Below are positions 3,934 through 60,393 of a stretch of DNA of 64,000 nucleotides, piece by piece. The notes under the pieces are model-generated. The model made no database searches, had not been told where the DNA came from, and worked only from the letters and a program-made list of their open reading frames with translations. The position numbers were made by a program, and so were the translations under genes. The stretch is from Eledone cirrhosa (Eukaryota), in NCBI GenBank assembly GCA_964016885.1, contig OZ024745.1:372001-436000 (forward strand), written 5' to 3'. How positions within the stretch are numbered: the stretch's first letter is position 1; each line of letters starts with the position of its first letter.

Positions 3934-4447
3934 ATATTGTTATGCTTTGGGAGGGTCATGTTGCCAATAAGAAACACACGCACCAGTTGCTTTCACTTCA
4001 ATTTATTATAAATTAAATTTATAAATTTCCGGTTGGTTGGTTGGTTCCACAACCAGACGATTGTTCATATATTGTCAAAGTTCTTTCGTCACACATTCTA
4101 TGACGCCCGGATGTAACACATGCGCAAACTAAGCACACAACACACACAAAAACAAGATGGCGTATGACAGAACAAAGGAGAGGCTCAAAAACAAAGAAAA
4201 GAATCCCCCAGTCACTGAAGAGGTCACAGAATGTGTGACGAAAGAATTTTGACAATATATGAACAATCGTCTGGTTGTGGAACCAACCAACCGGAAATTT
4301 ATAAATTTAATTTATAATAAATTGAAGTGAAAGCAACTGGTGCGTGTGTTATTGGCAACATGACCCTCCCAAAGTATAACAATATCGGTTTCAACACACG
4401 TTTTCAGATAAAGAATCTTGCTAAACAAATTCAGAAACGAAATATTT
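3934..4447 (+). mobile_element. Penelope-like pLTR-derived insert with inverted 5' arm
   Basis: Inverted arms of ~165-170 bp (3934-4104 and 4223-4385), a ~118-bp spacer and a ~60-bp unpaired 3' tail. Flanked by (TA)n on both sides and contains a hammerhead motif. Confidence 0.7.
4211..4253 (+). ncRNA. Minimal hammerhead ribozyme motif
   Basis: GUCA-CUGAAGA-G-GUCACA...UGUGAC-GAAA-GAAUUU-UGAC, with helix I GUCA/UGAC and one extra G before helix II. The inverted arm retains GAAAGAACUU. Confidence 0.6.
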
Positions 4448-13559: not shown

Positions 13560-15620
13560 TGTAATACATGAGGTATAGTATATCATTGTTGATAAAAATA
13601 TGTAATACACGAGGTATATGCCATTGTTGATAAATAGCTGTAATACACAAAGTATAGTATGTTGTTGATAAATAGCTGTTATACATGAGGTATAGTAAAT
13701 TATTGTTGATAAATAGCTGTTATACATGATGTATAGTAAGTTATTGTTGATAAATATCTGTTATACATGAGATATAGTAAATTATTGTTGATAAATAGCT
13801 GTTATACATCAGGTATAGTAAGTTATTGTTGATAAATATCTGTTATACATGAGGTATAGTAAATTATTGTTGATAAATAGCTGTTATACATGATGTATAG
13901 TAAGTTATTGTGTATAAATATCTGTTATACATGAGATATAGTAAGTTATTGTTGATAAATAACTGTTATACATGAGATATAGTAAATTATTGTTGATAAA
14001 TAGCTGATATACATGAGGTATAATAAGTTATTGTTGATAAATAGCTGTTATACATGAGGTATAGTAAATTATTGTTGATAAATATCTGTTATACATGAGG
14101 TATAGTAAATTATTCTTGATAAATATCTGTTATACATGAGATATAGTAAGTTATTGTTGATAAATATCTGTTATACATGAGGTATAGTAAATTATTGTTG
14201 ATAAATATCTGTTATACATGATGTATAGTAAGTTATTGTTGATAAATATCTGTTATACATGAGGTATAGTAAATTATTGTTGATAAATATCTGTTATACA
14301 TGATGTATAGTAAATTATTATTGATAAATAGCTGTTATACATGAGATATAGTAAATTATTCTTGATAAATAGCTGTTATACATGAGGTATAGTAAGTTAT
14401 TCTTGATAAATAGCTGTTATACATGAGATATAGTAAGTTATTGTTGATAAATATCAGTTATACATGAGATATAGTAAGTTATTGTTGATAAATATCTGTT
14501 ATACATGATGTATAGTAAGTTATTGTTTGTTGATAAATAGCTGTTATACATGAGGTATAGTATGTTATTGTTGATAAATAGCTGTTATACATGAGGTATA
14601 GTAAATTATTGTTGATAAATAGCTGTTATACATGAGGTATAGTATGTTATTGTTGATAAATAGCTGTTATACATGAGGTATAGTATGTTATTGTTGATAA
14701 ATAGCTGTTATACATGAGGTATAGTATGTTATTGTTGATAAATATCTGTTATACATGAGGTATAGTAAATTATTGTTGATAAATAGCTGTTATACATGAG
14801 GTATAGTAAGTTATTGTTTGTTGATAAATAGCTATTATACATGAGGTATAGTATGTTATTGTTGATAAATAGCTGTTATACATGAGGTATAGTATGTTAT
14901 TGTTGATAAATATCTGTTATACATGAGGTATAGTAAATTATTATTGATAAATAGCTGTTATACATGAGGTATAGTATGTTATTGTTGATAAATAGCTGTT
15001 ATACATGAGGTATAGTATGTTATTGTTGATAAATAGCTGTTATACATGAGGTATAGTATGTTATTGTTGATAAATATCTGTTATACATGAGGTATAGTAA
15101 ATTATTGTTGATAAATAGCTGTTATACATGATGTAGAGTATGTTATTGTTGATAAATCTGTTATACATGAGATATAGTAAATTATTGTTGATAAATAGCT
15201 GTTATACATGAGGTATAGTAAATTATTCTTGATAAATATCTGTTATACATGAGGTATAGTAAATTATTGTTGATAAATATCTGTTATACATGAGATATAG
15301 TAAGTTATTGTTGATAAATATCTGTTATACATGAGGTATAGTAAATTATTGTTGATAAATAGCTGTTATACATGAGGTATAGTAAATTATTGTTGATAAA
15401 TAGCTGTTATACATGAGGTATAGTTTGTTATTGTTGATAAATAGCTGTTATACATCAGGTATAGTAAATTATTGTTGATAAATAGCTGTTATACATGAGG
15501 TATAGTAAATTATTGTTGATAAATAGCTGTTATACATGAGGTATAGAATGTTATTGTTGATAAATAGCTGTTATACATGAGGTATAGTATGTTATTGTTG
15601 ATAAATAGCTGTTATACATG
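13560..15620. repeat. 41-bp minisatellite, about 50 copies
   Basis: Unit GTTATACATGAGGTATAGTAAATTATTGTTGATAAATAGCT; period confirmed from 13681 to 13722. Confidence 0.97.
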
Positions 15621-16107
15621 ACATTTAATACAGTCAATTTTCTACAGCATAATTTTGTTTAGTAGCAGTAAAGCAATGATTATTATTGAGACAATGGTAG
15701 AGTAATGGAAAAGTCCTCCGATGTGGAATATACAGCCCAGTTTTTGTACTGTGTTGGAAAGAATAAATAATTGAGAAAACCACCACCACCACAACCACCG
15801 TTGTCATCAGAATATATAAATAAATGAATGGCTTGATAGATGAAGAATGTTATTTACAGAGAATTGCAGCAGTTTATAATGAGAGACAGAAATACAGAAT
15901 AGAAGCTTTAAGGAGAAATACAGGAAATTATTCTTCATTTTGTATCAAAGACTCACGACTGACATGATTGATGGATTTTTTATTGTAAGTAGGGGAGATA
16001 ACTGAATCTTGAGTGTTTGTAAGTAGGAAATAGAGGAGAAACTCTATGACTGACACGACAGGAACCAAAGGTGATACTCCATGACTGAGAGGATATGATA
16101 GGAAGTA

Positions 16108-19428: not shown

Positions 19429-21046
19429 CTATTTTCTTTCTTCAATAGTTGGATACAAAAGAGACACACACACTCATACACACACACTCATACACACAGC
19501 TATATGAAGTGAATGGTAATAATCAGTTGAATTGAAAACAATTTAACAATTGCTATTAGTCTGTCTGTTAGACTTTCTTTTAGTCTGGCTGTCTGTCTGT
19601 CTGTCTGTGTCAACTGTTGGCTGCCTCAGTCAACTTCATTTGTCATTGAAAACAGAAATTTGGTCAGTCAGTTAATTGTCTGAGACAAACATGACATCAG
19701 TTGACAAAGGGTCAGAAATATATACAATACTACAGCTTAACTGTCAGATATATATACAACACTACAGATTGACTGTCAGATATATATATACAACACTACA
19801 GATTGACTGTCAGATATATATACAACACTACAGATTGGCTGTCAGATATATATACAACACTACAGATTGGCTGTCAGATATATATACAACACTACAGATT
19901 GACTGTCAGATATATATACAACACTACAGATTAACTCTCAGATATATATACAACACTACAGATTGACAGTCAGATATATATACAACACTACAGATTGACT
20001 GTCAGATATATATATACAACACTACAGATTGACTGTCAGATAGATATACAACACTACAGATTGACTGTCAGATATATATACAACACAACAGATTGACTGT
20101 CAGATATATATACAACACTACAGATTGACTGTCAGATATATATACAACACTACAGATTAACTGTCAGATATATATACAACACTACAGATTAACTCTCAGA
20201 TATATATACAACACTACAGATTGACTGTCAGATATATATACAACACTACAGATTGGCTGTCAGATATATATACAACACTACAGATTGACTGTCAGATATA
20301 TATACAACACTACAGATTGACAGTCAGATATATATACAACACTACAGATTGACTGTCAGATATATATACAACACTACAGATTGACTGTCAGATATATATA
20401 CAACACTACAGATTAACTCTCAGATATATATACAACACTACAGATTGACTGTCAGATATATATACAACACTACAGATTGACTGTCAGATATAGATATACA
20501 ACACTACAGATTGACTGTCAGATATATATACAACACTACAGATTGACTGTCAGATATAGATATACAACACAACAGATTGACTGTCAGATATATATACAAC
20601 ACTACAGATTGACTGTCAGATATATATACAACACTACAGATTGACTGTCAGATATAGATATACAACACAACAGATTGACAGTCAGATATATATATACAAC
20701 ACTACAGATTGACTGTCAGATAGATATACAACACTACAGATTGACTGTCAGATATATATATACAACACTACAGATTGGCTGTCAGATATATATACAACAC
20801 TACAGATTGACTGTCAGATATATATACAACACTACAGATTGACTGTCAGATATATATATACAACACTACAGATTGACTGTCAGATATATATACAACACTA
20901 CAGATTGACAGTCAGATATATATACAACACTACAGATTGACTGTCAGATATATATACAACACTACAGATTAACCATCAGTTAGATAGATATACAGTACTA
21001 CAGATTGACTGTCCGATAGATCAGTCAGATATATATATATATATAT

Positions 21047-21397
21047 AAATTATTTAGCCTGATAGTGGGGTTAAGAACCCTCGGAGAAATGGAAAAAGAT
21101 GAGTATTGACGTACATGGGAGTCGAACCCACATCTTTGGTTATCCGGACCACTGTGCTACCATTTACACCAACACATGTGATGTGTTGGTGTAAATGGTA
21201 GCACAGTGGTCTGGATAACCGTAGATGTGGGTTCGACTCCCATGTACGTCAATACTCATCTTTTTCCATTTCTCCGAGGGTTCTTAACCCCACTATCAGG
21301 CTAAATAATTTCTTTAATTTCTTCAGTCAAAATACGGCGATAGCTTAAATTTCTCATAATTTCAAACCCACTCGCTGTTTCGAAAAATATTCTTACA
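21047..21397 (+). mobile_element. Palindromic tRNA-headed insert in (TA)n
   Basis: 131-bp inverted arms (21047-21177 and 21181-21311) with 3 mismatches and a 3-nt spacer, plus an 86-bp unique tail. (TA)n lies on both sides. Confidence 0.8.
21180..21251 (+). tRNA. tRNA-like cloverleaf (pseudo-tRNA or SINE head); inverted copy at 21107-21177
   Basis: Acceptor GATGTGT/GTACGTC+A (three G-U pairs); D-stem GTGT/GCAC with A-box TGGTGTAAATGG; anticodon stem GTGGT/ACCGT with loop CTGGATA (non-canonical T37); T-arm GTGGG-TTCGACT-CCCAT; TTTTT about 10 nt downstream. Confidence 0.6.
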
Positions 21398-22074
21398 TAT
21401 ATATATATAACACTACAGATTAACCATCAGTCAGATAGATATATATACACAACACTACAGATTAACCATCAGTCAGATATATATATATATATATATGTAT
21501 ATACACAACACTACAGATTAACCATCAGTCAGATAGATATATATACACAACACTACAGATTAACCATCAGTCAGATAGATATATATATATATATACAACA
21601 CTACAGATTAACCATCAGTCAGATAGATCTATATACACAACACTACAGATTAACCATCAGTCAGATAGATATATATATATACACAACACTACAGATTAAC
21701 CATCAGTCAGATAGATATATATATATACACAACACTACAGATTAACCATCAGTCAGATAGATATATATATATATACACAACACTACAGATTAACCATCAG
21801 TCAGATAGATAGATATACACAACATTACAGATTAACCATCAGTCAGATAGATATATATACACAACACTACTGATTAACCATCAGTCAGATAGATATATAT
21901 ATATATATATACAACACTACAGATTAACCATCAGTCAGATAGATATATATATATATACAACACTACAGATTAACCATCAGTCAGATAGATATATATATAT
22001 ATATATACAACACTACAGATTAACCATCAGTCAGATAGATCTATATACACAACACTACAGATTAACCATCAGTC

Positions 22075-22115
<41 letters not shown>

Positions 22116-22180
22116 ACACTACAGATTAACCATCAGTCAGATAGATATATATACACAACACTACAGATTAACCATCAGTC

Positions 22181-22225
<45 letters not shown>

Positions 22226-22674
22226 ACACTACAGATTAACCATTAGTCAGATAGATATATATACACAACACTACAGATTAACCATCAGTCAGATATATAT
22301 ATATATATATATACAACACTACAGATTAACCATCAGTCAGATAGATATATATACACAACACTACAGATTAACCATCAGTCATATATATATATATATATAT
22401 ATACAACACTACAGATTAACCATCAGTCAGATATATATATATATACAACACTACAGATTAACCATCAGTCAGATATATATATATATATACAACACTACAG
22501 ATTAACCATCAGTCAGATAGATCTATATACACAACACTACAGATTAACCATCAGTCAGATAGATATATATATATATACAACACTACAGATTAACCATCAG
22601 TCAGATAGATATATATATATATATATACAACACTACAGATTAACCATCAGTCAGATATATATATATATATACAA

Positions 22675-25600
22675 AATATACAAAACTTCAGAGTTGGTAC
22701 CATGAATGTAGGCACCTTAAAGGGTCGCTCTAACGAGGTTGTAGAAATGCTTGAACGTAAGGAGGTCGATGTTTGTTGTATTCAAGAGACCAGGTGGAGG
22801 GGAGGGTCGGCTAGATTCATCGTGGGTAAAGAACGATGCTATAAACTTTTCTGGGTGGGAAATGACAATGGGTTGGGTGGGGTAGGAATCATGGTAGCAG
22901 AAAAGTGGGCAGATAAGATAATAGACGTAAATAGAGTGAACGACAGAATAATTAAAATAAGACTTGTCCTCAATAAAACTACGGTGACAGTAATATCTGC
23001 GTACGCACCCCAATCCGGACTGCCCCGCGCTATAAAAGACAGATTCTATGAGACACTGATGCTAACTACCTCCCAAATATCCGACAGTGACTATATAGTT
23101 ATTGCAGGCGACCTAAATGGTCACGTTGGACAACATTGTGACGGCTATGACGGAATCCATGGAGGCTATGGGTTCGGTACTAGAAATGAGGAAGGCTCCA
23201 GAATCCTGGAATTCTGCGACGCAAATAACTTAACTATCTGTAACACTAACTTCAAAAAACGAGACAATCACTTGATCACCTATAGATCGGGGGAACACAC
23301 AAGCCAGGTAGATTATATCCTTACCAGAAGACGTGACAGAGTGTCTGTTGTTAACACTAAATCCCACCCCCATGAAGAATTCACCTCCCAACATAGACTG
23401 ATAATTAGCGACCTCATAGTCAGGACGAGACGTACTAGACAGCGGAAGAGGACTATCCTCAGGAGAAAAATATGGAAGCTAAAGGACCCCATGGCCAGAA
23501 ATAAATTTCAAAGCATATTACTTGACGCTTTCGACAGTAAGGAAGAGCAATTAGAGTCGTATAATATAGAGGAACAGTGGGAATTCCTGAGAGCAAACCT
23601 GCTGACGGCGGCAGACGAAGTCTGTGGCTGGAGCAGGCCTGTAGGTAGAAGGAGAGTAACATGGTGGTGGAACAGTAAGGTGGAGGAGTCAATTAAGGCC
23701 AAAAAGCAGGCTTGGAAAGTATGGTGGGATGGGGGAAGTGGAGAAGACTATCAAGTGGCCAGGAGGGAAGCTAGGAGACAAGTGTACTTCGCAAGAAGGG
23801 AAGCAGAGGAAAGAAAGTTCAAGCATGTTCTACAACGTGAGGACCAAAAACGTGAGGTGTTCAGGATTGCCAGGCAATGTGTCAAGGAAAACCGTGATAT
23901 TGTCGGGGAGAAGTGTGTACTTAACGATGATGGCATACTTGCCATCACCGACGCTGATAAGAAGGTAGCTTGGAAGTGTCACTACGAAAGGCTTCTAAAT
24001 GAGGAGAAGAAATGGGAGAAAGACAGTCTCCCCCAGATCGATCCAATAGAGGGACCAGCAGTGTTAGTTGAAGGTAGTATAATAAGTAAGGCAATCAAAG
24101 ATATGAAGACGGGTAAGGCGGCTGGGCCTTCGGAAATAGTTGCTGAGATGCTGAAGGCATCTGGTTCGGTGGGACACACCATGGTCACCCGGATAGTTAA
24201 CCAAGTCGTACAGAATGGGGTTGTTCCGAAGGAATGGCGTAGCAGCATCATCGTTAACTGCTATAAGGGAAAAGGAGATGCCCTAGATAGGAGTAACTAT
24301 AGAGGCATTAAATTAATCGACCAGGTCATGAAGGTCACAGAAAAAGTAATAGCGCAACTAATCAGAGAGAGAATTGATCTAGATGAAATGCAGTTCGGTT
24401 TTGTGTCAGGCAAAAGTACCACAGACGCTCTTTTCATTGTACGACAACTACAGGAGAAGTACCTAGCTAAAAGTAAACCCCTATACTTAGCTTTCGTCGA
24501 CTTGGAGAAAGCCTTCGACAGAGTCCCCCGTTCCATTATCTGGTGGTCTCTTAGAAAACTAGGTGTTGACGAATGGCTTGTGAGAGCTATACAAGCCATG
24601 TATAAAGAAACAGTCAGTAAGGTTAGAATTAACAACGAATATAGTGAAGAGTTTAGCGTAAAAGTTGGTGTCCATCAGGGCTCTGTTCTTAGCCCCCTAC
24701 TATTTATTATTGCCCTTCAGGCTATAACAGAGGAGTTCAAGACCGGCTGCCCATGGGAACTCCTATACGCAGATGATCTAACGCTCATAGCTGAATCAAT
24801 GACCGAACTAGAGAAGAAATTCCAAACGTGGAAGCACGGCCTAGAATCAAAAGGCCTTAAAATTAACCTGGCTAAGACTAAAGTTCTAGTTTGTAGGAAA
24901 GAAAATAAGGCGGCGGTCCCATCGGGGAAATGGCCATGCTCAGTGTGTAGGAAAGGCGTAGGTAGAAACTCCATTTTATGTCCCAAATGCAAAGTATGGG
25001 TGCATAAAAGATGTAGTGGGATCACAGGTAAGCTAACTAAGAACATAGATTTTACATGTGGCCGGTGCTCTGGTGCAATAAGTAGCAGCAAGTGCCCACA
25101 AAATACTAGCTCCTTCAACTGCGCAGAGGGTTCTATAGAAATAGTGGACAGCTTCCGTTATCTGGGTGACAAAATCAGCAGTGGGGGAGGGTGCTCTGAA
25201 AGTACAGTAGCTAGAGTCAGAACTGGATGGAAAAAGTTCAGAGAGCTTATACCACTATTAGCCGCTAGAGGGTTCTCCCTAAAAATGAAAGGCAGGTTAT
25301 ACGATGCCTGCATACAAACAGCAATGCTGCATGGCAGTGAGACCTGGGCATTGTGTGCAGAGGATATACGCAGACTAGAGAGGAACGAAGCTTGCATGCT
25401 CCGCTGGATGTGCAATAGTAATATACGTGAACGGCAAAGCATAAACGAACTAAGGAAAAAATTAGAAATAAGAGGGATCAGATGTTGTTTACTCGAGAGA
25501 AGGCTACGTTGGTACGGTCACGTGATGCGCATGAAAGACGACAGCTGTATAACAAAGTGCAGGGCAATAAAGATAGACGGTAGCCACGGAGTAGGCAGAC

Positions 25601-25994
25601 CCAGAAAAACATGGGACGAGCTGATAAATTCCGACCTCACACGCTTACACCTCTCCAAGACAATGTCACTGGACCGAGACCTTTGGCGGTACTCAGTAAT
25701 AGAGAAGACCCGCCTTACCTAAATACAAAGTAAAAACCTACTACAGTCAGTAGGCATCTCTATCAAAACACACCCCCGTCCCCCCACCTCCACCCCACCC
25801 ACACCGCCCCTTTCAATGTAAAGTTATGTTGGTCCCACAACATCCAGGCCGAAACAAATGAGATCGTGTAGAAAACCCGCCAGACAGTCCTATGCGAGCA
25901 AGACAACCACTCTTGCCTCAAGTGGGAAAACCCCCGTCCAAACCCATGCAAGCGTGGAACACGAACGCTAAACCTGATGATGATGATGATGATG
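22675..25994 (+). mobile_element. Young RTE-clade LINE, 5'-truncated just upstream of the endonuclease
   Basis: Single intact ORF, ~270-bp 3' UTR and (GAT)n tail. Apparent TSD ATATACAA (22667-22674 and 25995-26002) within the satellite unit. Confidence 0.93.
22702..25722 (+). CDS. RTE ORF: APE endonuclease + reverse transcriptase + PHD-type zinc finger + C-terminal domain
   Basis: EN motifs (RVGT)MNVGTL, CIQET, SAYAP, AGDLNGH, VDYIL and SQHRL; RT motifs QFGF, FVDLEKAFDRV, GVHQGSVLSPLLF, LLYADD and FRYLG; RLRWYGHVMR and GRPRKTW; 1006 aa with no stops. Confidence 0.95.
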   Translation: MNVGTLKGRSNEVVEMLERKEVDVCCIQETRWRGGSARFIVGKERCYKLFWVGNDNGLGGVGIMVAEKWADKIIDVNRVNDRIIKIRLVLNKTTVTVISAYAPQSGLPRAIKDRFYETLMLTTSQISDSDYIVIAGDLNGHVGQHCDGYDGIHGGYGFGTRNEEGSRILEFCDANNLTICNTNFKKRDNHLITYRSGEHTSQVDYILTRRRDRVSVVNTKSHPHEEFTSQHRLIISDLIVRTRRTRQRKRTILRRKIWKLKDPMARNKFQSILLDAFDSKEEQLESYNIEEQWEFLRANLLTAADEVCGWSRPVGRRRVTWWWNSKVEESIKAKKQAWKVWWDGGSGEDYQVARREARRQVYFARREAEERKFKHVLQREDQKREVFRIARQCVKENRDIVGEKCVLNDDGILAITDADKKVAWKCHYERLLNEEKKWEKDSLPQIDPIEGPAVLVEGSIISKAIKDMKTGKAAGPSEIVAEMLKASGSVGHTMVTRIVNQVVQNGVVPKEWRSSIIVNCYKGKGDALDRSNYRGIKLIDQVMKVTEKVIAQLIRERIDLDEMQFGFVSGKSTTDALFIVRQLQEKYLAKSKPLYLAFVDLEKAFDRVPRSIIWWSLRKLGVDEWLVRAIQAMYKETVSKVRINNEYSEEFSVKVGVHQGSVLSPLLFIIALQAITEEFKTGCPWELLYADDLTLIAESMTELEKKFQTWKHGLESKGLKINLAKTKVLVCRKENKAAVPSGKWPCSVCRKGVGRNSILCPKCKVWVHKRCSGITGKLTKNIDFTCGRCSGAISSSKCPQNTSSFNCAEGSIEIVDSFRYLGDKISSGGGCSESTVARVRTGWKKFRELIPLLAARGFSLKMKGRLYDACIQTAMLHGSETWALCAEDIRRLERNEACMLRWMCNSNIRERQSINELRKKLEIRGIRCCLLERRLRWYGHVMRMKDDSCITKCRAIKIDGSHGVGRPRKTWDELINSDLTRLHLSKTMSLDRDLWRYSVIEKTRLT

Positions 25995-27519: not shown

Positions 27520-30500
27520 ATAACTGCTACTATATTACTATAACTGGTACTATACTACAACTGGTACTATACTATAACTGGTACTATACTATAACTGCTA
27601 CTATATTACTACAACTGGTACTATACTATAACTGCTACTATATTACTACAACTGATACTATACTACAACTGGTACTAGAGTATAACTGGAACTATGTTAC
27701 TATACTATAACTGGTACTACACTATAACTGGTACTATACTGTAACTAGTACTATACTGTAACTAGTACTACACTATAATTGGTACTATACTATAACTGGT
27801 ACTACACTATAACTGGTATTATACTATAACTGGTACTACACTATAACTGGTACTACATTATAACTGGTACTATATTACTATACATAACTGGTACTATATT
27901 ACTACACTATAACTGGTACTATATTACTATACTATAACTGGTACTATATTACTATACCATAACTGGTACTATATTACTATACCATAACTGGTACTATATT
28001 ACTATACTATAACTGGTACTATATTACTATACTATAACTGGTACTATATTACTATACCATAACTGGTACTATATTACTATACTATAACTGGTACTATATT
28101 ACTACACTATAACTGGTACTATATTACTATACTATAACTGGTACTATATTACTATACCATAACTGGTACTATATTACTATACCATAACTGGTACTATATT
28201 ACTATACCATAACTGGTACTATATTACTATACCATAACTGGTACTATACTACTATACTATAACTGGTACTATATTACTATACCATAACTGGTACTATATT
28301 ACTATACTATAACTGGTACTATATTACTATACTATAACTGGTACTATATTACTATACTATAACTGGTACTATATTACTACAGTATAACTGGTACTATATT
28401 ACTATACTATAACTGGTACTATATTACTACACTATAACTGGTACTATATTACTACACTATAACTGGTACTATATTACTATACCATAACTGGTACTATATT
28501 ACTACACTATAACTGGTACTATATTACTATACCATAACTGGTACTATATTACTATAACATAACTGGTACTATATTACTATACTATAACTGGTACTATATT
28601 ACTATACCATAACTGGTACTATATTACTATACTATAATTGGTACTATACTGCTATACTATAATTGGTACTATATTACTATACTATAACTGGTACTATATT
28701 ACTACACTATAACTGGTACTATATTACTATACCATAACTGGTACTATATTACTATACCATAACTGGTACTATATTACTACACTATAACTGGTACTATATT
28801 ACTATACTATAACTGGTACTATATTACTATACTATAACTGGTACTATATTACTATACTATAACTGGTACTATATTACTACACTATAACTGGTACTATATT
28901 ACTATACCATAACTGGTACTATATTACTATACCATAACTGGTACTATATTACTATACCATAACTGGTACTATATTACTATACCATAACTGGTACTATATT
29001 ACTATACCATAACTGGTACTATATTACTATACTATAATTGGTACTATACTGCTATACTATAATTGGTACTATATTACTATACTATAACTGGTACTATACT
29101 ACTATACTATAACTGGTACTATATTACTACACTATAACTGGTACTATATTACTATACTATAATTGGTACTATACTACTATACCATAACTGGTACTATACT
29201 ACTATACCATAACTGGTACTATATTACTATACTATAATTGGTACTATACTGCTATACTATAATTGGTACTATACTATAACTGGTACTATATTACTATACT
29301 ATAACTGGTACTATATTACTACACTATAACTGGTACTATATTACTACACTATAACTGGTACTATATTACTATACCATAACTGGTACTATATTACTATACT
29401 ATACTACTATACTATAACTGGTACTATATTACTATACTATAACTGGTACTATATTACTATACCATAACTGGTACTATATTACTATACCATAACTGGTACT
29501 ATATTACTATACTATAACTGGTACTATACTACTATAGCATGACTGGTACTATATTACTATACCATAACTGGTACTATATTACTATACTATAACTGGTACT
29601 ATATTACTATACCATAACTGGTACTATATTACTATACCATAACTGGTACTATATTACTATACCATAACTGGTACTATACTACTATACTATAACTGGTACT
29701 ATATTACTATACTATAACTGGTACTATACTACTATACCATAACTGGTACTATATTACTATACTATAACTGGTACTATACTACTATACTATAACTGGTACT
29801 ATACTACTATACTATAACTGGTACTATATTACTATACCATAACTGGTACTATATTACTATACTATAACTGGTACTATATTACTATACTATAACTGGTACT
29901 ATATTACTATACTATAACTGGTACTATATTACTATACCATAACTGGTACTATATTACTATACCATAACTGGTACTATATTACTATACCATAACTGGTACT
30001 ATACTACTAAACCATAACTGGTACTATACTACTATACTATAACTGGTACTATATTACTATACTATAACTGGTACTATATGACTATACTATAACTGGTACT
30101 ATATGACTATACTATAACTGGTACTATATTACTATACCATAACTGGTACTATATTACTACACTATAACTGGTACTATACTACTATACTATAACTGGTACT
30201 ATACTGCTATACTATAACTGGTACTATATTACTATACTATAACTGGTACTATACTACTATACTATAACTGGTACTATATTACTACACTATAACTGGTACT
30301 ATATTACTATACTATAACTGGTACTATACTATAACTGGTACTATATTACTATACTATAATTGGTACTATATTACTATACTATAATTGGTACTATATTACT
30401 ATACTATAACTGGTACTATACTACTATACTATAATTGGTACTATACTGCTATACTATAATTGGTACTATATTACTATACTATAACTGGTACTATATTACT

Positions 30501-31645
30501 ATACTATAACTGGTACTATACTACTATACTATAATTGGTACTATACTGCTATACTATAATTGGTACTATACTATAACTGGTACTATATTACTATACTATA
30601 ACTGGTACTATACTACTATACTATAATTGGTACTATACTGCTATACTATAATTGGTACTATACTATAACTGGTACTATATTACTATACTATAACTGGTAC
30701 TATATTACTATACTATAACTGGTACTATATTACTATACTATAACTGGTACTATATTACTATACCATAACTGGTACTATACTATAACTGGTACTATATTAC
30801 TATACTATAACTGGTACTATACTATAACTGGTACTATATTACTATACTATAATTGGTACTATACTATAACTGGTACTATATTACTATACTATAATTGGTA
30901 CTATACTATAACTGGTACTATATTACTATACTATAATTGGTACTATACTATAACTGGTACTATATTACTATACTATAATTGTTACTATACTATAACTGGT
31001 ACTATATTACTATACTATAATTGGTACTATACTATAACTGGTACTATATTACTATACTATAATTGGTACTATACTATAACTGGTACTATATTACTATACT
31101 ATAATTGGTACTATACTATAACTGGTACTATATTACTATACTATAATTGGTACTATACTATAACTGGTACTATATTACTATACTATAATTGGTACTATAC
31201 TATAACTGGTACTATATTACTATACTATAATTGGTACTATACTATAACTGGTACTATATTACTATACTATAATTGGTACTATACTATAACTGGTACTATA
31301 TTACTATACTATAATTGGTACTATACTATAACTGGTACTATATTACTATACTATAATTGGTACTATACTATAACTGGTACTATATTACTATACTATAATT
31401 GGTACTATACTATAACTGGTACTATATTACTATACTATAATTGGTACTATACTATAACTGGTACTATATTACTATACTATAATTGGTACTATACTATAAC
31501 TGGTACTATATTACTATACTATAATTGGTACTATACTATAACTGGTACTATATTACTATACTATAATTGGTACTATACTATAACTGGTACTATATTACTA
31601 TACTATAATTGGTACTATACTATAACTGGTACTATATTACTATGC
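27520..31645. repeat. Satellite progressing from 17-bp to 25-bp to 42-bp (17+25) units
   Basis: 17-mer ACTATAACTGGTACTAT, then 25-mer AACTGGTACTATATTACTATACTAT, then a homogeneous 42-mer from ~30780 (lines at 31021 and 31441 are identical, 10 periods). Confidence 0.95.
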
Positions 31646-33800: not shown

Positions 33801-34593
33801 GAAACAGACTTTAGACTTTTAGATACATGTCTGTGGAATACTCAGCCACTCATACATTAATTAATGAGTTAGCCATTCAGTTGAACAAAACAACTGAAGG
33901 GTTCATTATTAAAACTAATGAAGGATCAATGAGGCGCTCTACTCAATACATTTAATTAGTAGAAACTTCAATATAAAACCTTATCAATGCCATCAATTAA
34001 CTGGGTTGCCGAACATAAACCGATACAAGGAGAACGTCTCAAGAACAACATGAATGGTACTTGAACAACAGAAGCTTGAGGAAACTGCAGCTTAAATGAA
34101 TGAGTGCTGCACACTGGTAGCGAACACAGTAAATAAAGATATCCTGCTTTGAATTATTTTCCTCAATTCTTCTTCTAATGAAGGGATTTTATCCTGAAAT
34201 ATTAAAGACTATTAAACAACTCCAAGGTAACATCCCATTATCTTTGTCATCAAGATGGACATGGGCCTCAAAGGAACAGATCTGTGCACTGCAATGGTCG
34301 GCTAAGGACTCTGAAATTTAAACTTTGTTAATGCCTCACAACCGCCTCAAGGAATTGGATGATTCAAGAAGAAAGAAGAATATTTTGAACATTTAATATC
34401 CCATTAGTATTGCTGTAGCCTTCTAATAAACTATGGTATTTACTGCAATAAAGTTTGTAAATAGGAAGTGTTGTAAAATTGTTATTGTTCCTCACTTGAT
34501 AGCCATCATTTCTTTCTCCACTTACAATAACTACTGCTTTATTTTCTGTATTTATTCATTTAATCAATTTAAACGGTGGCCATATTGAGCTAG

Positions 34594-37500
34594 TAAACTA
34601 TGACAGACTAGAGAGGTGTAAACTAAGACAGACTAGAGAGGTGTAGACTATGACAGACTAGAGAGGTGTAGACTATGACAGACTAGAGAGGTGTAGACTA
34701 TGACAGACTAGAGAGGTGTAGACTAAGACAGACTAGAGAGGTATAGACTATGACAGACTAGAGAGGTATAGACTATGACAGACTAGAGAGGTGTAGACTA
34801 TGACAGACTAGAGAGGTGTAGACTATGACAGACTAGAGAGGTGTAAACTAAGACAGACTAGAGAGGTGTAAACTAAGACAGACTAGAGAGGTGTAGACTA
34901 TGACAGACTAGAGAGGTGTAGACTATGACAGACTAGAGAGGTGTAAACTAAGACAGACTAGAGAGGTGTAGACTATGACAGACTAGAGAGGTGTAGACTA
35001 TGACAGACTAGAGAGGTGTAGACTAAGACAGACTAGAGAGGTGTAGACTATGACAGACTAGAGAGGTGTAGACTATGACAGACTAGAGAGGTGTAGACTA
35101 TGACAGACTAGAGAGGTGTAGACTATGACAGACTAGAGAGGTATAAACTAAGACAGACTAGAGAGGTGTAAACTATGACAGACTAGAGAGGTGTAGACTA
35201 TGACAGACTAGAGAGGTATAAACTAAGACAGACTAGAGAGGTGTAGACTATGACAGACTAGAGAGGTGTAGACTATGACAGACTAGAGAGGTGTAGACTA
35301 AGACAGACTAGAGATGTGTAGACCAAGACAGACTAGAGAGGTGTAGACTAAGACAGACTAGAGAGATATAGACTAAGACAGACTAGAGAGGTGTAGACTA
35401 TGACAGACTAGAGAGGTGTAGACTATGACAGATTAGAGATGTGTAGACTATGACAGACTAGAAAGGTGTAGACTAAGACAGACTAGAGAGGTGTAGACCA
35501 AGACAGACTAGAGAGGTGTAGACTAAGACAGACTAGAGAGATATAGACTAAGACAGACTGGAGAGGTGTAGACTAAGACAGACTAGAGAGGTATAAACTA
35601 AGACAGACTAGAGAGATATAGACTAAGACAGACTAGAGAGGTGTAGACTATGACAGACTAGAGAGGTGTAGACTATGACAGACTAGAGAGGTGTAGACTA
35701 TGACAGACGAGAGAGGTGTAGACTATGACAGACTAGAGAGGTGTAGACTAAGACAGACTAGAGAGGTGTAGACTAAGTCAGACTAGAGAGGTGTAGACTA
35801 AGACAGACTAGAGAGGTGTAGACTAAGACAGACTAGAGAGGTGTAGACTAAGACAGACTAGAGAGGTATAGACTAAGACAGACTAGAGAGGTGTAGACTA
35901 AGACAGACTAGAGAGGTGTAGACTAAGACTAAGACAGACTAGAGAGGTGTAGACTAAGACAGACTAGAGAGGTGTAGACTAAGACAGACTAGAGAGGTGT
36001 AGACTATGACAGACTAGAGAGGTGTAGACTATGACAGACTAGAGCAGTATAAAGTAAGACAGACTAGAGAGGTGTAGACTATGACAGACTAGAGAGGTGT
36101 AGACTAAGACAGACTAGAGAGGTGTAGATTAAGACAGACTAGAGAGGTGTAGACTAAGACAGATTAGAGAGGTGTAGACTATGACAGACTAGAGAGGTGT
36201 AGACTATGACAGACTAGAGAGGTGTAGACCAAGACAGACTAGAGAGGTGTAGACTAAGACAGATTAGAGAGGTGTAGACTAAGACAGACTAGAGAGGTGT
36301 AGACCAAGACAGACTAGAGAGGTGTAGACCAAGACAGACTAGAGATGTGTAGACTATGACAGACTAGAGAGGTGTAGACTAAGACAGACTAGAGAGGTGT
36401 AGACCAAGACAGACTAGAGAGGTGTAGACCAAGACAGACTAGAGAGGTGTAGACTAAGACAGATTAGAGAGGTGTAGACTAAGACAGACTAGAGAGGTGT
36501 AGACCAAGACAGACTAGAGAGGTGTAGACCAAGACAGACTAGAGAGGTGTAGACTAAGACAGACTAGAGAGGTGTAGACTATGACAGACTAGAGAGGTGT
36601 AGACTAAGACAGACTAGAGAGGTGTAGACTAAGACAGACTAGAGAGGTGTAGACTATGACAGACTAGAGAGGTGTAGACTATGACAAACTAGAGAGGTGT
36701 AGACTATGACAGACTAGAGAGGTGTAGACTAAGACAGACTAGAGAGGTGTAGACTAAGACAGACTAGAGAGGTGTAGACTATGACAGACTAGAGAGGTGT
36801 AGACTAAGACAGACTAGAGATGTGTAGACTATGACAGACTAGAGAGGTGTAGACTAAGACAGACTAGAGAGGTGTAGACTATGACAGACTAGAGAGGTGT
36901 AGACTATGACAGACTAGAGAGGTGTAGACTAAGACAGACTAGAGAGGTGTAGACTATGACAGACTAGAGAGGTGTAGACTATGACAGACTAGAGAGGTGT
37001 AGACTATGACAGACTAGAGAGGTGTAGACTATGACAGACTAGAGAGGTGTAGACTATGACAGACTAGAGAGGTGTAGACTAAGACAGACTAGAGAGGTGT
37101 AGACTAAGACAGACTAGAGAGGTGTAGACTAAGACAGACTAGAGAGGTGTAGACTATGACAGACTAGAGAGGTGTAGACTATGACAGACTAGAGAGGTGT
37201 AGACTATGACAGACTAGAGAGGTATAGACTAAGACAGACTAGAGAGGTGTAGACCAAGACAGACTAGAGAGGTGTAGACTATGACAGACTAGAGAGGTGT
37301 AGACTATGATAGACTAGAGAGGTGTAGACTATGACAGACTAGAGAGGTGTAAACTAAGACAGACTAGAGAGGTGTAGACTAAGACAGACTAGAGAGGTAT
37401 AGACTATGACAGACTAGAGAGGTGTAGACTATGACAAACTAGAGAGGTGTAGACTATGACAGACTAGAGAGGTGTAGACTAAGACAGACTAGAGAGGTGT

Positions 37501-40124
37501 AGACCAAGACAGACTAGAGAGGTGTAGACCAAGACAGACTAGAGAGGTGTAGACTAAGACAGATTAGAGAGGTGTAGACTATGACAGACTAGAGAGGTGT
37601 AAACTAAGACAGGCTAGAGAGGTGTAGACTATGACAGACTAGAGAGGTGTAGACTATGACAGACTAGAGAGGTGTAAACTAAGACAGGCTAGAGAGGTGT
37701 AGACTAAGACAGACTAGAGAGGTGTAGACTATGACAGACTAGAGAGGTGTAAACTAAGACAGGCTAGAGAGGTGTAGACTAAGACAGACTAGAGAGGTGT
37801 AGACCAAGACAGACTAGAGAGGTGTAGACTAAGACAGATTAGAGAGGTGTAGACTATGACAGATTAGAGAGGTGTAGACTATGACAGACTAGAGAGGTGT
37901 AGACTAAGACAGGCTAGAGAGGTGTAGACTAAGACAGATTAGAGAGGTGTAGACTATGACAGACTAGAGAGGTGTAGACTATGACAGACTAGAGAGGTGT
38001 AGACTAAGACAGATTAGAGAGGTGTAGACTATGACAGACTAGAGAGGTGTAGACTAAGACAGATTAGAGAGGTGTAGACTATGACAGACTAGAGAGGTGT
38101 AGACTATGACAGACTAGAGAGGTGTAGACTAAGACAGACTAGAGAGGTGTAAACTAAGACAGGCTAGAGAGGTGTAGACTAAGACAGGCTAGAGAGGTGT
38201 AGACTAAGACAGGCTAGAGAGGTGTAGACTAAGACAGACTAGAGAGGTGTAAACTAAGACAGACTAGAGAGGTGTAGACTAAGACAGGCTAGAGAGGTGT
38301 AAACTATGACAGACTAGAGAGGTGTAGACTATGACAGACTAGAGAGGTGTAGACTAAGACAGGCTAGAGAGGTGTAAACTATGACAGACTAGAGAGGTGT
38401 AGACTATGACAGACTAGAGAGGTGTAGACTATGACAGACTAGAGAGGTGTAGACTAAGACAGGCTAGAGAGGTGTAGACTAAGACAGACTAGAGAGGTGT
38501 AGACTAAGACAGGCTAGAGAGGTGTAGACTATGACAGATTAGAGAGGTGTAGACTAAGACAGGCTAGAGAGGTGTAGACTATGACAGATTAGAGAGGTGT
38601 AGACTAAGACAGATTAGAGAGGTGTAGACTAAGACAGGCTAGAGAGGTGTAGACTATGACAGACTAGAGAGGTGTAGACTATGACAGACTAGAGAGGTGT
38701 AGACTATGACAGACTAGAGAGGTGTAGACTAAGACAGATTAGAGAGGTGTAGGCTATGACAGACTAGAGAGGTGTAGACTAAGACAGATTAGAGAGGTGT
38801 AGACTAAGACAGATTAGAGAGGTGTAGACTAAGACAGGCTAGAGAGGTGTAGACTATGACAGACTAGAGAGGTGTAGACTATGACAGACTAGAGAGGTGT
38901 AGACTATGACAGACTAGAGAGGTGTAGACTAAGACAGATTAGAGAGGTGTAGACTAAGACAGATTAGAGAGGTGTAGACTAAGACAGACTAGAGAGGTGT
39001 AGACTATGACAGACTAGAGAGGTGTAGACTATGACAGACTAGAGAGGTGTAGACTATGACAGACTAGAGAGGTGTAGACTAAGACAGATTAGAGAGGTGT
39101 AGACTAAGACAGATTAGAGAGGTGTAGACTAAGACAGATTAGAGAGGTGTAGACTAAGACAGATTAGAGAGGTGTAGACTAAGACAGACTAGAGAGGTGT
39201 AGACTAAGACAGGCTAGAGAGGTGTAAACTAAGACAGGCTAGAGAGGTGTAAACTAAGACAGACTAGAGAGGTGTAGACTAAGACAGATTAGAGAGGTGT
39301 AGACTATGACAGACTAGAGAGGTGTAGACTATGACAGACTAGAGAGGTGTAGACTATGACAGACTAGAGAGGTGTAGACTAAGACAGACTAGAGAGGTGT
39401 AGACTAAGACAGACTAGAGAGGTGTAGACTAAGACAGATTAGAGAGGTGTAGACTATGACAGACTAGAGAGGTGTAGACTATGACAGACTAGAGAGGTGT
39501 AGACTATGACAGACTAGAGAGGTGTAGACTAAGACAGACTAGAGAGGTGTAGACTAAGACAGACTAGAGAGGTGTAGACTAAGACAGATTAGAGAGGTGT
39601 AGACTAAGACAGATTAGAGAGGTGTAGACTAAGACAGATTAGAGAGGTGTAGACTAAGACAGATTAGAGAGGTGTAGACTATGACAGACTAGAGAGGTGT
39701 AGACTATGACAGACTAGAGAGGTGTAGACTATGACAGACTAGAGAGGTGTAGACTAAGACAGACTAGAGAGGTGTAGACTAAGACAGACTAGAGAGGTGT
39801 AGACTAAGACAGATTAGAGAGGTGTAGACTAAGACAGACTAGAGAGGTGTAGACTAAGACAGGCTAGAGAGGTGTAGACTAAGACAGACTAGAGAGGTGT
39901 AGACTAAGACAGACTAGAGAGGTGTAGACTAAGACAGACTAGAGAGGTGTAGACTAAGACAGACTAGAGAGGTGTAGACTAAGACAGACTAGAGAGGTGT
40001 AGACTAAGACAGGCTAGAGAGGTGTAGACTATGACAGACTAGAGAGGTGTAGACTAAGACAGACTAGAGAGGTGTAAACTAAGACAGGCTAGAGAGGTGT
40101 AGACTAAGACAGACTAGAGAGGTA
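34594..40124. repeat. 25-bp satellite, about 220 copies
   Basis: Unit GACTAWGACAGACTAGAGAGGTGTA with T/A dimorphism and regional GATTA/GGCTA variants. Confidence 0.98.
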
Positions 40125-46460: not shown

Positions 46461-49400
46461 TACTGTAGTGAACTATATACCACCTACTAATACTGTAGTG
46501 AACTATATACCAACTACTGTAGTGTGAACTATATACCACCTACTGTAGTGAACTATATACCACCTACTGTAGTGAACTATATACCAACTACTGTAGTGAA
46601 CTATATACCAACTACTGTAGTGAACTATATACCAACTACTGTAGTGAACTATATACCAACTACTGTAGTGAACTATATACCAACTACTGTAGTGAACTAT
46701 ATACCAACTACTGTAGTGAACTATATACCACCTACTGTAGTGAACTATATACCAACTACTGTAGTGAACTATATACCAACTACTGTAGTGAACTATATAC
46801 CACCTACTGTAGTGAACTATATACCACCTACTGTAGTGAACTATATACCAACTACTGTAGTGAACTACATACCACCTACTGCAGTGGACTATATACCACC
46901 TACTGTAGTGAACTATATACCACCTACTGTAGTGAACTATATATTACCTACTGTAGTGAACTATATACCAACTACTGTAGTGAACTATATACCAACTACT
47001 GTAGTGAACTATATGCCAACTACTGTAGTGAACTATATACCAACTACTGTAGTGTACTACAACCTACTGTAGTGAACTATATACCACCTACTCTAGTGAA
47101 CTATATACCACCTACTGTAGTGAACTATATACCAACTACTGTAGTGTACTACCAACTACTGTAGTGAACTATATACCACCTACTGTAGTGTACTATATAC
47201 CACCTACTGTAGTGAACTATATACCAACTACTGTAGTGAACTATATACCAACTACTGTAGTGAACTATATACCACCTACTGTAGTGAACTATATACCAAC
47301 TACTGTAGTGAACTATATACCAACTACTGTAGTGAACTATATACCATCTACTGTAGTGAACTATATACCAACTACTGTAGTGAACTATATACCAACTACT
47401 GTAGTGAACTATATACCATCTACTGTAGTGAACTATATACCAACTACTGTAGTGAACTATATACCACCTACTGTAGTGAACTATATACCAACTACTGTAG
47501 TGAATTATATACCAACTACTGTAGTGAACTACCACCTACTGTAGTGAACTATATACCACCTACTGTAGTGAACTATATATCAACTACTGTAGTGAACTAT
47601 ATACCACCTACTGTAGTGAACTATATACCAACTACTGTAGTGAACTATATACCACCTACTGTAGTGAACTATATAACAACTACTGTATTGAACTATATAC
47701 CAACTACTGTAGTGAACTATATACCAACTACTGTAGTGAAATATATACCAACTACTGTAGTGAACTATATACCACCTACTGTAGTGAACTATATACCAAC
47801 TACTGTAGTGAACTGTATACCAACTACTGTAGTGAACTTTATAACAACTACTGTATTGAACTATATATCAACTACTGTAGTGAACAGTATACCACCTACT
47901 GTAGTGAACTATATACCAACTACTGTAGTGAACTATATAACAACTACTGTAGTGAACTATATACCAACTACTGTAGTTAACTGTATACCAACTACTGTAG
48001 TGAACTATATAACAACTACTGTATTGAACTATATATCAACTACTGTAGTGAACTATATACCACCTACTGTAGTGAACTATATACCAACTACTGTAGTGAA
48101 CTATATACCACCTACTGTAGTGAACTATATACCACCTACTGTAGTGAACTATATACCAACTACTGTAGTGAACTGTATACCAACTACTGTAGTGAACTAT
48201 ATACCAACTACTGTAGTGAATTATATACCAACTGCTGTAGTGAACTACCACCTACTGTAGTGAACTATATACCACCTACTGTAGTGAACTATATACCAAC
48301 TACTGTATGTGAACTGTATACCACCTACTGTAGTGAACTATATACCAACTACTGTAGTGAACTATATACCAACTACTATAGTGAACTATATACCACCTAC
48401 TGTAGTGAACTATAAACCACCTACTGTAGTGAACTATATACCAACTACTGTAGTGAACTATATACCACCTACTGTAGTGAACTATATACCAACTACTGTA
48501 GTGAACTATATACCACCTACTGTAGTGAACTATATACCAACTACTGAAGTGAACTACCACCTACTGTAGTGAACTATATACCAACTATTGTAGTGAACTA
48601 TATACCACCTACTGTAGTGAACTATATACCAACTACTGTAGTGAACTATATACCAACTACTGTAGTGAACTACCACCTACAGTAGTGAACTATATACCAA
48701 CTACTGTAGTGAACTATATACCAACTATTGTAGTGAACTATATACCACCTACTGTAGTGAACTATATACCAGCTACTGTAGTGAACTATATACCAACTAC
48801 TGTAGTGAACTATATACCAACTACTGTAGTGAACTATATACCACCTACTGCAGTGGACTATATACCATCTACTGTAGTGAACTATATACCACCTACTGTA
48901 GTGAACTATATACCATCTACTGTAGTGAAATATATACCAACTACTGTAGTGAACTATATACCACCTACTGTAGTGAACTATATACCACCTACTGTAGTGA
49001 ACTATATACCACCTACTGTAGTGAACTATATACCACCTACTGTAGTGAACTATATACCAACTACTGTAGTGAACTATGTACCACCTACTGTAGTGAACTA
49101 TATAACAACTACTGTAGTGAACTATATAACAACTACTGTAGTGTACTACCACCTACTGTAGTGAACTATATACCACCTACTCTAGTGAACTATATACCAC
49201 CTACTGTAGTGAACTATATACCAACTACTGTAGTGAACTATATACCACCTACTGTAGTGAACTATATACCACCTACTGTAGTGAACTATATAACAACTAC
49301 TGTAGTGTACTATATAACAACTACTGTAGTGAACTATATACCAACTACTGTAGTGAACTATATACCACCTACTCTAGTGAACTATATACCACCTACTGTA

Positions 49401-58400: not shown

Positions 58401-60393
58401 CTACTGTAGTGAACTATATACCACCTACTGTAGTGAATTATATACCACCTACTGTAGTGAACTATATACCAACTACTGTAGTGAACTACCACCTACTGTA
58501 GTGAACTATATACCACCTACTGTAGTGAACTATATACCACCTACTGTAGTGAACTATATACCAACTACTGTAGTGAACTATATACCAACTACTGTAGTGA
58601 ACTATATACCAACTTCTGTAGTGAATTATATACCAACTACTGTAGTGAACTATATACCACCTACTGTAGTGAACTACCAACTACTGTAGTGAACTATATA
58701 CCAACTACTGTAGTGAACTATATACCAACTACTGTAGTGAACTATATACCAACTACTGTAGTGAACTATATACCAACTACTGTAGTGAACTATATACCAC
58801 CTACTATAGTGAACTATATACCACCTACTGTAGTGAACTACCAACTTCTGTAGTGAACTATATACTAACTACTGTAGTGAACTATATACCAACTACTGTA
58901 GTGAACTATATACCACCTACTGTAGTGAACTACCAACTTCTGTAGTGAACTATATACCAACTACTGTAGTGAACTATATACCAACTACTGTAGTGAACTA
59001 TATACCAACTACTGTAGTGAACTACCACCTACTGTAGTGAACTATATACCAAGTACTGTAGTGAACTATATACCAACTACTGTAGTGAACTACCAACTAC
59101 TGTAGTGAACTATATACCAACTACTGTAGTGAACTATATACCAACTACTGTAGTGAACTATATACCACCTACTGTAGTGAACTATATACCACCTACTGTA
59201 GTCAACTACCAACTTCTGTAGTGAACTATATACCAACTACTGTAGTGATCTATATACCACCTACTGTAGTGAACTACCAACTTCTGTAGTGAACTATATA
59301 CCTACTACTGTAGTGAACTATATACCAACTACTGTAGTGAACTATATACCAACTACTGTAGTGAACTATATACCAACTACTGTAGTGAACTATATACCAA
59401 CTACTGTAGTGAACTATATACCAACTACTATAGTGAACTATATACCAACTACTGTAGTGAACTACCAACTACTGTAGTGAACTATATACCAACTACTGTA
59501 GTGAACTATATACCACCTACTGTAGTGAACCACCAACTTCTGTAGTGAACTATATACCAACTACTGTAGTGAACTATATACCAACTACTGTAGTGAACTA
59601 TATACCAACTACTGTAGTGAACTATATACCACATACTGTAGTGAACTATATACCAACTATTGTAGTGAACTATATACCAACTACTATAGTGAACTATATA
59701 CCACCTACTGTAGTGAACTATATACCAACTACTGTAGTGAACTATATACCAACTACTGTAGTGAACTATATACCAACTACTGTAGTGAACTACCACCTAC
59801 TGTAGTGAACTATATACCAACTACTGTAGTGAACTATATACCAACTACTGTAGTGAACTATATACCAACTACTGTAGTGAACTATATACCACCTACTGTA
59901 GTGAACTATACACCAACTACTGTAGTGAACTACCACCTACTGTAGTGAACTATATACCAACTACTGTAGTGAACTACCACCTACTGTAGTGAACTATATA
60001 CCACCTACTGTAGTGAACTATATACCACCTACTGTAGTGAACTATATACCAACTACTGTAGTGAACTATATACCAACTACTGTAGTGAACTATATACCAA
60101 CTACTGTAGTGAACTATATACCACCTACTGTAGTGAACTATATACCACATACTGTAGTGAACTATATACCAACTACTGTAGTGAACTATATACCAACTAC
60201 TGTAGTGAACTATATACCACCTACTGTAGTGAACTATATACCAACTACTGTAGTGAACTATATACCACCTACTGTAGTGAACTATATACCAACTACTGTA
60301 GTGAACTATATACCAACTACTGTAGTGAACTATATACCACCTACTGTAGTGAACCATATACCAACTACTGTAGTGAACTATATACCAACTACT
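46461..60393. repeat. 24-bp satellite, about 13.9 kb (roughly 580-590 units)
   Basis: Unit GTAGTGAACTATATACCAMCTACT with interspersed 20-bp deletion variants and kb-scale internal duplications. Confidence 0.99.

Follow-up and report, generated by a model that had tools for sequence, protein, structure and literature searches.

A short tRNA-bearing repeat family of Eledone cirrhosa without a hammerhead, with insertions resembling those of Penelope-like elements

The palindromic insert at positions 21047–21397 of the window (the whole 64,000-nucleotide stretch of Eledone cirrhosa DNA analyzed here) belongs to a short non-coding repeat that occurs in thousands of copies and carries a tRNA-like fold. 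Judged by analogy with described Penelope-like elements (PLEs), its two 3′ termini 30–40 nt apart, its inverted truncated copies, its tandems, and its (TA)n targets together make up a PLE-type insertion signature. We consider a PLE-type mobilization of this tRNA-bearing family highly probable. The fuller reading that we favor, a ribozyme-less SINE analog that is transcribed by Pol III and whose multimeric RNA is copied by a PLE reverse transcriptase, is probable (a variant with a circular template being counted apart).

The copy in the window consists of two arms of 131 bp (21047–21177 and 21181–21311) that differ at three positions (21212, 21221, and 21222) and are separated by the spacer GTG, exactly as an earlier note on this DNA had described them. 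It comprises the following features, with unit positions referring to the reference unit L014:1447-1717:

21047–21177, minus strand: inverted (left) arm, unit positions 57–187
21107–21178, minus strand: mirror cloverleaf within the left arm (Rfam RF00005, 35.2 bits)
21178–21396, plus strand: forward arm, unit positions 54–271
21180–21251, plus strand: tRNA-like cloverleaf (Rfam RF00005, 46.9 bits, cut-off 29)
21187–21198, plus strand: A-box-like segment (type 2 Pol III promoter) by sequence, kept in subfamilies A, B, and C save for a 1-nt indel
21230–21240, plus strand: B-box-like segment/T-loop by sequence; arms stop most often just 3′ of the B-box
21254–21270, plus strand: trailer strand including a T5 run (21261–21265), predicted to form a 17-bp helix with the leader (unit 39–55)
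21334–21378, plus strand: conserved 7-bp stem with an AU/AC-rich loop, containing the upstream terminus (site 1, ∼21355–21362)
21361–21396, plus strand: family-typical tail, from site 1 to site 2
21030–21046, no strand: left (TA)n target, within a 32-bp minisatellite (array 19711–22673)
21397–21409, no strand: right (TA)n target

The A-box-like and B-box-like segments of this cloverleaf are assigned by the promoter consensus. The forward arm begins 2 nt upstream of the cloverleaf and ends at the fixed downstream terminus of the family; apart from 2 nt, the leader strand (unit 39–55) is missing. Because the left arm ends early, at an AT-rich site before the usual position 231–238, the unpaired segment is as long as 86 bp (21312–21397) in this copy, a length that the earlier note gave correctly for the window but that is no constant of the family, where the mode is ∼33–40 bp. 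Direct reading of the letters bears out the TA runs on both sides and the lack of a poly-A tail; the TA runs belong to the 32-bp minisatellite that hosts the element. Fold-back joints of the family, centered on a CATG palindrome, are seen in contigs of independent short-read runs. At the level of the family, the palindrome is therefore not an assembly artifact; none of the contigs listed spans the locus at 21047–21397, so that the independent confirmation applies to the family and not to this single copy.

Within the 3.0 Gb of genome searched, the forward arm retrieved 1,602 candidates, 40 of which were scored; the element is multi-copy. Three subfamilies can be distinguished. Subfamily A is represented by 1,433 exact matches of its 3′-end 22-mer (0 for the reversed control), with a divergence of 5.3% among different insertions, and subfamily B by 1,199 exact 3′-end matches; the unit of B measures 260 bp and is 84% identical to A. 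Subfamily C (unit of 290 bp) occurs in dispersed copies and as a satellite (G000:C28:19440624-19716543, L380-L385) of ∼276 kb, equivalent to ∼950 units if uninterrupted, and all six stretches sampled from it were filled. The satellite unit is ∼94% identical to a dispersed C copy and shows hints of a higher-order periodicity; on the side inspected, the satellite ends lack the TA/inverted signature. Short-read run X4 from another organism yielded 3–5 low-depth contigs, too few to claim the family in a second species.

The unit of 260–290 bp, arranged head-to-tail in tandem copies, is composed of a leader, a tRNA cloverleaf with A and B boxes, and a trailer; in the reference unit, a 54-nt leader precedes the cloverleaf (positions 56–127), which is followed by a 144-nt trailer. 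The earlier description as a tRNA head plus tail was right in calling the element multi-copy and non-autonomous, but the true unit is a circularly permuted monomer of 260–290 bp with the 54-nt leader, often in tandem.

Insertion architecture was analyzed on the first 70 loci of the subfamily-A 22-mer list in genome order, of which 68 were left after two duplicates had been dropped; all lie on one chromosome and all were chosen for having site 2. An inverted copy is present in 49/68 insertions, a tandem junction in 13/68 (9 of these 13 also being inverted), and 15/68 are simple. TA-rich DNA borders 67 of the 68 insertions on at least one side and 56 on both, and with the 49 inverted insertions the expectation of TA targets and inverted 5′ copies holds up. 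Both outer ends of inverted copies are 3′ ends, and the arms hold the same sequence. The longer outer end lies at unit position 270–271 in 48/49 inverted insertions, often with 3–5 nt of the next unit, whereas the shorter one lies at 228–240 in 33/49 and at 215–240 in 44/49. The two ends differ by 31–43 nt in 33 of the 49, giving a typical tail of ∼33–40 nt.

Site 1 is located inside the loop of the 7-bp stem, which is kept in A, B, and C and shows one C-G to U-A double change. The tail of subfamily C is longer (∼60 nt), and its stretch between sites 1 and 2 is longer by ∼20 nt, indicating that each site follows a local motif. Tandem copies continue beyond site 2, and the TTGA of that continuation is kept in 28/68 copies (3–5 nt in many), as internal initiation predicts. 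Rare variants are common to the arms or to neighboring units of one insertion at rates of 0.19 and 0.22, compared with 0.014 between different insertions (67 and 36 within-insertion pairs against 3,000 between, a ∼15-fold excess); therefore, each structure comes from one source.

These features correspond closely to those of PLEs. According to the accessible part of PMC8557442, PLE insertions are marked by partial tandems, an inverted 5′-truncated copy, a tail of 30–40 bp, and a bias to (TA)n. The sections of PMC11167929 available to us report that, in vitro, two internal start sites are used at an AC-rich stem-loop, their spacing giving the length of the tail, that cleavage and extension take place on both strands of the target, and that the hammerhead is dispensable. 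As far as the available text of both papers (PMC11167929; PMC8557442) goes, PLEs, including non-autonomous Chlamys such as MRC1, resemble the present element in having two start sites, a 30–40-bp tail, an inverted truncated copy, partial tandems, microsatellite targets, and a stem-loop at the start sites, and Naiad and most Chlamys are also devoid of hammerheads. The element differs from them by its lack of an ORF, and the PLE descriptions in those sections mention no tRNA-like part. Non-autonomous Chlamys, as described there, generally have 3′ sequence in common with an autonomous family, whereas none was found for the element among 70 GIY-YIG loci.

The earlier note had placed the symmetry center at the 5′ end of the tRNA. 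The window copy does fall in this class of inner ends; the tRNA-5′-end center is therefore real but a minority pattern, as only 6 of 117 inner ends lie at unit 52–60 and 53 of 117 lie at 111–125, a 15-nt window at the boundary of T-arm and acceptor. Many inner ends sit at 4-nt palindromes on the 3′ side of the cloverleaf, and contigs of independent short-read runs show the same inner joints. When the arms that span the cloverleaf are considered (n = 73, from 70 loci and not all independent, hand-corrected for indels), 25 end at unit 50–57, just upstream of the cloverleaf; of the other 48, 40 continue into the preceding unit and 8 terminate in the 48 nt that follow. After visual inspection, three apparent ends at 52–56 and several at 2–36 were reassigned to indels or B-type leaders.

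The inner ends appear to follow the predicted RNA fold. The block at the T-arm may come from this fold or from tRNA-type methylation at position 112, a kind of modification that can block reverse transcription. The 5′-end cluster reaches the GGG 4 nt upstream of the cloverleaf and therefore fits a Pol III start better than a cut by RNase P; taken together, the intact A and B boxes and the 5′-end cluster just upstream of the cloverleaf seem compatible with transcription by Pol III. Two processing enzymes were considered as a source of the inner ends and fit poorly: the main cluster falls within the cloverleaf itself, at positions upstream of the RNase Z site, and the 5′ ends reach 4 nt before the RNase P site.

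Similar to tRNA-derived SINEs, the element has a tRNA-like head with A and B boxes. The cloverleaf has a 7-bp acceptor stem with three G-U pairs, a short variable arm, and a “GGA” loop with U37, and is therefore not a normal tRNA-Ser. Functional tRNAs possess a fixed anticodon and a purine at position 37, and tRNA-Ser a long variable arm. With an anticodon loop that differs among the subfamilies, U37, and the short variable arm, the cloverleaf appears constrained yet is not a functional tRNA gene, as judged from its sequence. A search for the parental host tRNA with a D-arm pattern that excluded the element's next base matched four mutated copies of the element alone.

Constraint is centered on the core (unit 39–146), in which A and B differ at 5/108 columns versus 40/165 elsewhere, corresponding to 4 substitutions in the core and 26 elsewhere (p = 0.0007; 17 A and 5 B rows). 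Across the three subfamilies, variation is lowest in the D- and T-arm. Leader positions 39–55 are complementary to trailer positions 130–146, which include the T5 run, and a 17-bp helix is predicted that is kept in A and B. Folding of the core compared with shuffles gave z = −3.3 and −3.2 for A and B and z = −1.7 and −1.0 for C, in which the acceptor stem is disrupted at its top; with the leader removed, the unit from the cloverleaf onward is no more stable than shuffles (z = 0.35). Formal covariation is weak: it amounts to one compensated pair in total, and pairs with double changes are no more numerous than in shuffles (471/500; one helix disregarded).

The leader strand shows an A-to-G excess of 5.2% versus ∼0.9% elsewhere, two sites carrying most of it. 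This excess is compatible with G-U pairing, through selection or RNA editing; at unit 44–50 (L014:1490-1496), it may be the trace of A-to-I editing that the RNA underwent prior to its reverse transcription. RNase P is inhibited by extensive pairing of leader and trailer, according to the accessible text of PMC9705548, which suggests by analogy that the 17-bp helix may protect the template RNA.

A mobilization pathway can be proposed from these observations. Pol III would start ∼4 nt before the cloverleaf and, on head-to-tail copies, read through the T5 run to produce unit-plus or multimeric RNA. A PLE protein would bind the 3′ stem-loop and nick both strands of (TA)n, and reverse transcription would be initiated internally, from site 1 within the loop and from site 2, 17–21 nt past the stem. 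The enzyme would often stall at the folded T-arm and otherwise reach the 5′ end of the RNA or the previous unit, and short microhomologies, in many cases the 4-nt palindromes on the cloverleaf's 3′ side, would serve to join the two strands. The window copy would represent the minority case in which both arms reach the RNA 5′ end. Of the earlier proposal, a non-autonomous element reverse-transcribed by a PLE with a fold-back at the 5′ end, the PLE-type tail, the TA targets, and the inverted copies stand, but the center is variable and usually lies on the 3′ side of the cloverleaf.

Lying 10 nt beyond the cloverleaf, the T5 run is of a kind that can terminate Pol III. As 40 of the 73 arms nevertheless pass into the previous unit, efficient read-through, another polymerase, or a circle is needed. 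The last of these leads to the first alternative, PLE insertion from a circular RNA of 260–290 nt, in effect a retrozyme without a ribozyme, in which the helix holds the ends for ligation and rolling reverse transcription gives the tandems; the cluster of 5′ ends would then derive from linear or nicked units. The circularly permuted unit and the same 40/73 arms that pass the presumed 5′ end argue for it, as do the rare variants common to neighboring units and the helix, which spans the 51/52 boundary, is kept in A and B, and shows its A-to-G changes opposite U. Moreover, animal retrozymes of 170–400 nt form RtcB-ligated circles, as stated in the accessible part of PMC7229834. However, there is no evident nuclease or ribozyme that makes a 3′ end at position 51, and a homogeneous tandem source locus predicts the shared variants equally, so that we regard the circular template as unlikely. 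Its most elaborate form is likewise doubtful: a PLE “SINE equivalent” without a hammerhead, in which a tRNA mimic serves as the Pol III promoter, the helix both shields from RNase P and clamps the circle, and the template is a circular tRNA-like RNA.

The CUGAnGA hammerhead core is absent from both strands of four stretches of A loci, and a relaxed hammerhead descriptor found nothing in A and only loose matches in B and in the minus strand of C, without conserved core or stem II. Rfam at E ≤ 10 returned the tRNA alone and no ribozyme on the element; it also missed the hammerhead at 3934–4447 of the window, the core of which was found by the relaxed descriptor.

PLEs are abundant in the genome (10,595 GIY-YIG candidates, some with intact RT+GIY-YIG frames) and form at least three clades by protein similarity. 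BLAST of the A and B units (and of C in one run) against 70 GIY-YIG loci out of at least 150 listed revealed no extended homology, and nhmmer with a single-sequence model detected no PLE 3′ region homologous over the unit among the fetched loci. Four motifs gave 0 matches in the supplement of Craig et al., the 3′ ends of the octopus Naiad sequences viewed, when read by eye, showed no extended homology to the unit, and one Naiad motif had 0 matches in this genome. The closest stem-loop geometry is found in one PLE clade, where a 7-bp stem encloses the first start site at a distance of 11 nt, equal to that in A, TTCRA follows this stem, and the tail measures ∼46 nt. A 35-nt match between B and this clade (p ∼0.002, 1 of 15 comparisons) is in a different register. 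The clade may serve as no more than a lead to the partner. An abundant Penelope-type family (11,524 matches) had looked like the partner on account of an apparent shared end and direct junctions (L306, L172), but its own tail of ∼90 nt is unrelated to that of the unit. Junctions of the element with this family occur at L306:292-500, L172:1680-3003, and L100:830-920, two of them at short microhomologies; they are ambiguous and may reflect either template switching or target deletion.

The second alternative, raised in its pLTR form as a caveat in the earlier note, takes the unit to be the pLTR of an autonomous PLE with a captured tRNA-like sequence, or the outcome of an internal deletion in such an element, with transcription by Pol II from tandem copies and incidental A and B boxes. 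PLE pLTRs form similar inverted and tandem short insertions (the family at 3934–4447 is an example), the geometry of the clade just described (stem around site 1, TTCRA after the stem) comes near that of the element, and inspection covered 70 of more than 10,000 GIY-YIG candidates. No inspected copy, however, continues 5′ into a PLE ORF, nor did any inspected PLE have a homologous 3′ region; all tandem junctions seen are unit-to-unit and never unit-to-ORF. With the D- and T-arm varying least across the three subfamilies and the 5′ ends clustering 1–4 nt upstream of the cloverleaf, we consider this origin improbable.

An ordinary SINE mobilized by a microsatellite-targeting LINE with twin priming, or a MITE- or Helitron-type DNA/rolling-circle element that seeded the satellite, would account for the tRNA-like head, the LINEs present (RTE-type frame at 22609–25722), and the 276-kb satellite, but is most improbable, given that the 3′ terminus alternates between two positions within a longer unit, in place of a single one with a poly-A or simple-repeat tail, that the arms cover one and the same sequence, each with its 3′ end facing outward, and that, in place of fixed symmetric termini with a TA duplication, the arms are unequal and variable (no inversion at all in 19/68), with inner ends that track the predicted RNA fold. 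LINE twin priming inverts non-overlapping upstream sequence, unlike the arms here. The absence of a LINE-type tail was thus noted correctly from the window, and the MITE, named there as an outcome that would overturn the proposal, is excluded.

On the whole, the element fits a non-autonomous PLE passenger and fails as a retrozyme for lack of a hammerhead, as a LINE-type SINE by its ends, and as a MITE. Its units lie in the 170–400-nt size range of retrozymes and are both tandem and dispersed. Animal (non-LTR) retrozymes are likewise non-coding, occur dispersed and in tandem, and are proposed PLE derivatives, according to the available parts of PMC7229834 and bioRxiv 10.64898/2026.07.22.740005. 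Each retrozyme unit carries a type I hammerhead, whereas in the units of the element none was found and there is a full cloverleaf with A and B boxes. The accessible sections of PMC7229834 describe no tRNA-like fold in retrozymes, and the word “tRNA” occurs 0 times in the available text of bioRxiv 10.64898/2026.07.22.740005. Sm-alpha and Sj-alpha of Schistosoma also form tandem SINE-like units, apparently transcribed by Pol III into multimeric transcripts; an active hammerhead cuts these multimers, whereas the element is devoid of a hammerhead and bears the PLE insertion signature directly. In its accessible part, the review from which this account is taken (PMC6765202) names no reverse transcriptase and mentions neither PLE tails nor inverted arms. 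The nearest known systems are thus animal retrozymes and schistosome Sm-alpha, both with a hammerhead, and the element is a ribozyme-less, tRNA-bearing variant.

As set out in the accessible text of PMC10886601, tRNA-derived SINEs as well as Helenus, Ajax, and Cassandra resemble the element in being non-autonomous with an internal Pol III promoter from a small-RNA gene. SINEs rely on LINEs and have a poly-A or simple-repeat tail, and Helenus, Ajax, and Cassandra rely on LTR retrotransposons, whereas the element apparently uses PLEs. That text treats small-RNA-derived elements of LINEs and LTR elements, with 0 occurrences of “Penelope,” and the available parts of PMC13282606 and PMC4209133 describe no such element. 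A tRNA-headed ribozyme-less PLE passenger was not found in the accessible portions of the literature covered, a scope outside which lie subscription journals, preprint supplements, Repbase, Dfam, and the older octopus SINE families.

So far, hammerheads have been the mark by which passengers of PLEs are recognized, and elements with a tRNA head are presumed to depend on LINEs or, rarely, on LTR elements. A tRNA-bearing ribozyme-less passenger with a PLE tail would extend the SINE concept to the third class of retrotransposons; in PLE-rich genomes, some “unclassified SINEs” may accordingly be mis-assigned. If true, the reading as a circular tRNA mimic would likewise add a third host class for retroelements derived from small-RNA genes. 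The idea that PLE-type mobility can do without hammerheads gains support from the family, which also connects a dispersed retroelement with a satellite of 276 kb. An RNA of 270 nt with a defined stem-loop and two start sites could represent a minimal natural substrate that makes template recognition by the PLE reverse transcriptase testable, and the thousands of copies would be a record of the enzyme stalling on a tRNA fold.

Several other repeats were noted in the window and at other loci. The insert at 3934–4447 is inverted, flanked by TA, and multi-copy, with a minimal hammerhead core at 4215–4248 and a tail of ∼60 nt; the likeness in layout to the present element and the hammerhead of the insert, both pointed out in the earlier note, are real, but the insert belongs to a different family. 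Its family has motifs in common with the terminal repeats of RT+GIY-YIG elements of this genome and is of the ordinary pLTR/retrozyme type. The flanks of loci L003, L019, and L213 hold a further small repeat that targets TA, contains a hammerhead-like segment, and has inverted copies, and many TA-targeting families accumulate in the same microsatellites. At the end of the 32-bp minisatellite, an open frame of 1,037 amino acids (22609–25722, plus strand) encodes an AP endonuclease, a reverse transcriptase, and a PHD finger, and is presumably an RTE-type LINE; a second, partial copy of this frame (62548–64000, minus strand) is ∼90% identical and inverted. The window further contains long minisatellite arrays at 13560–15621 (41-bp unit), 27536–31636 and 34593–40123 (25-bp unit each), and 46461–60393 (24-bp unit).
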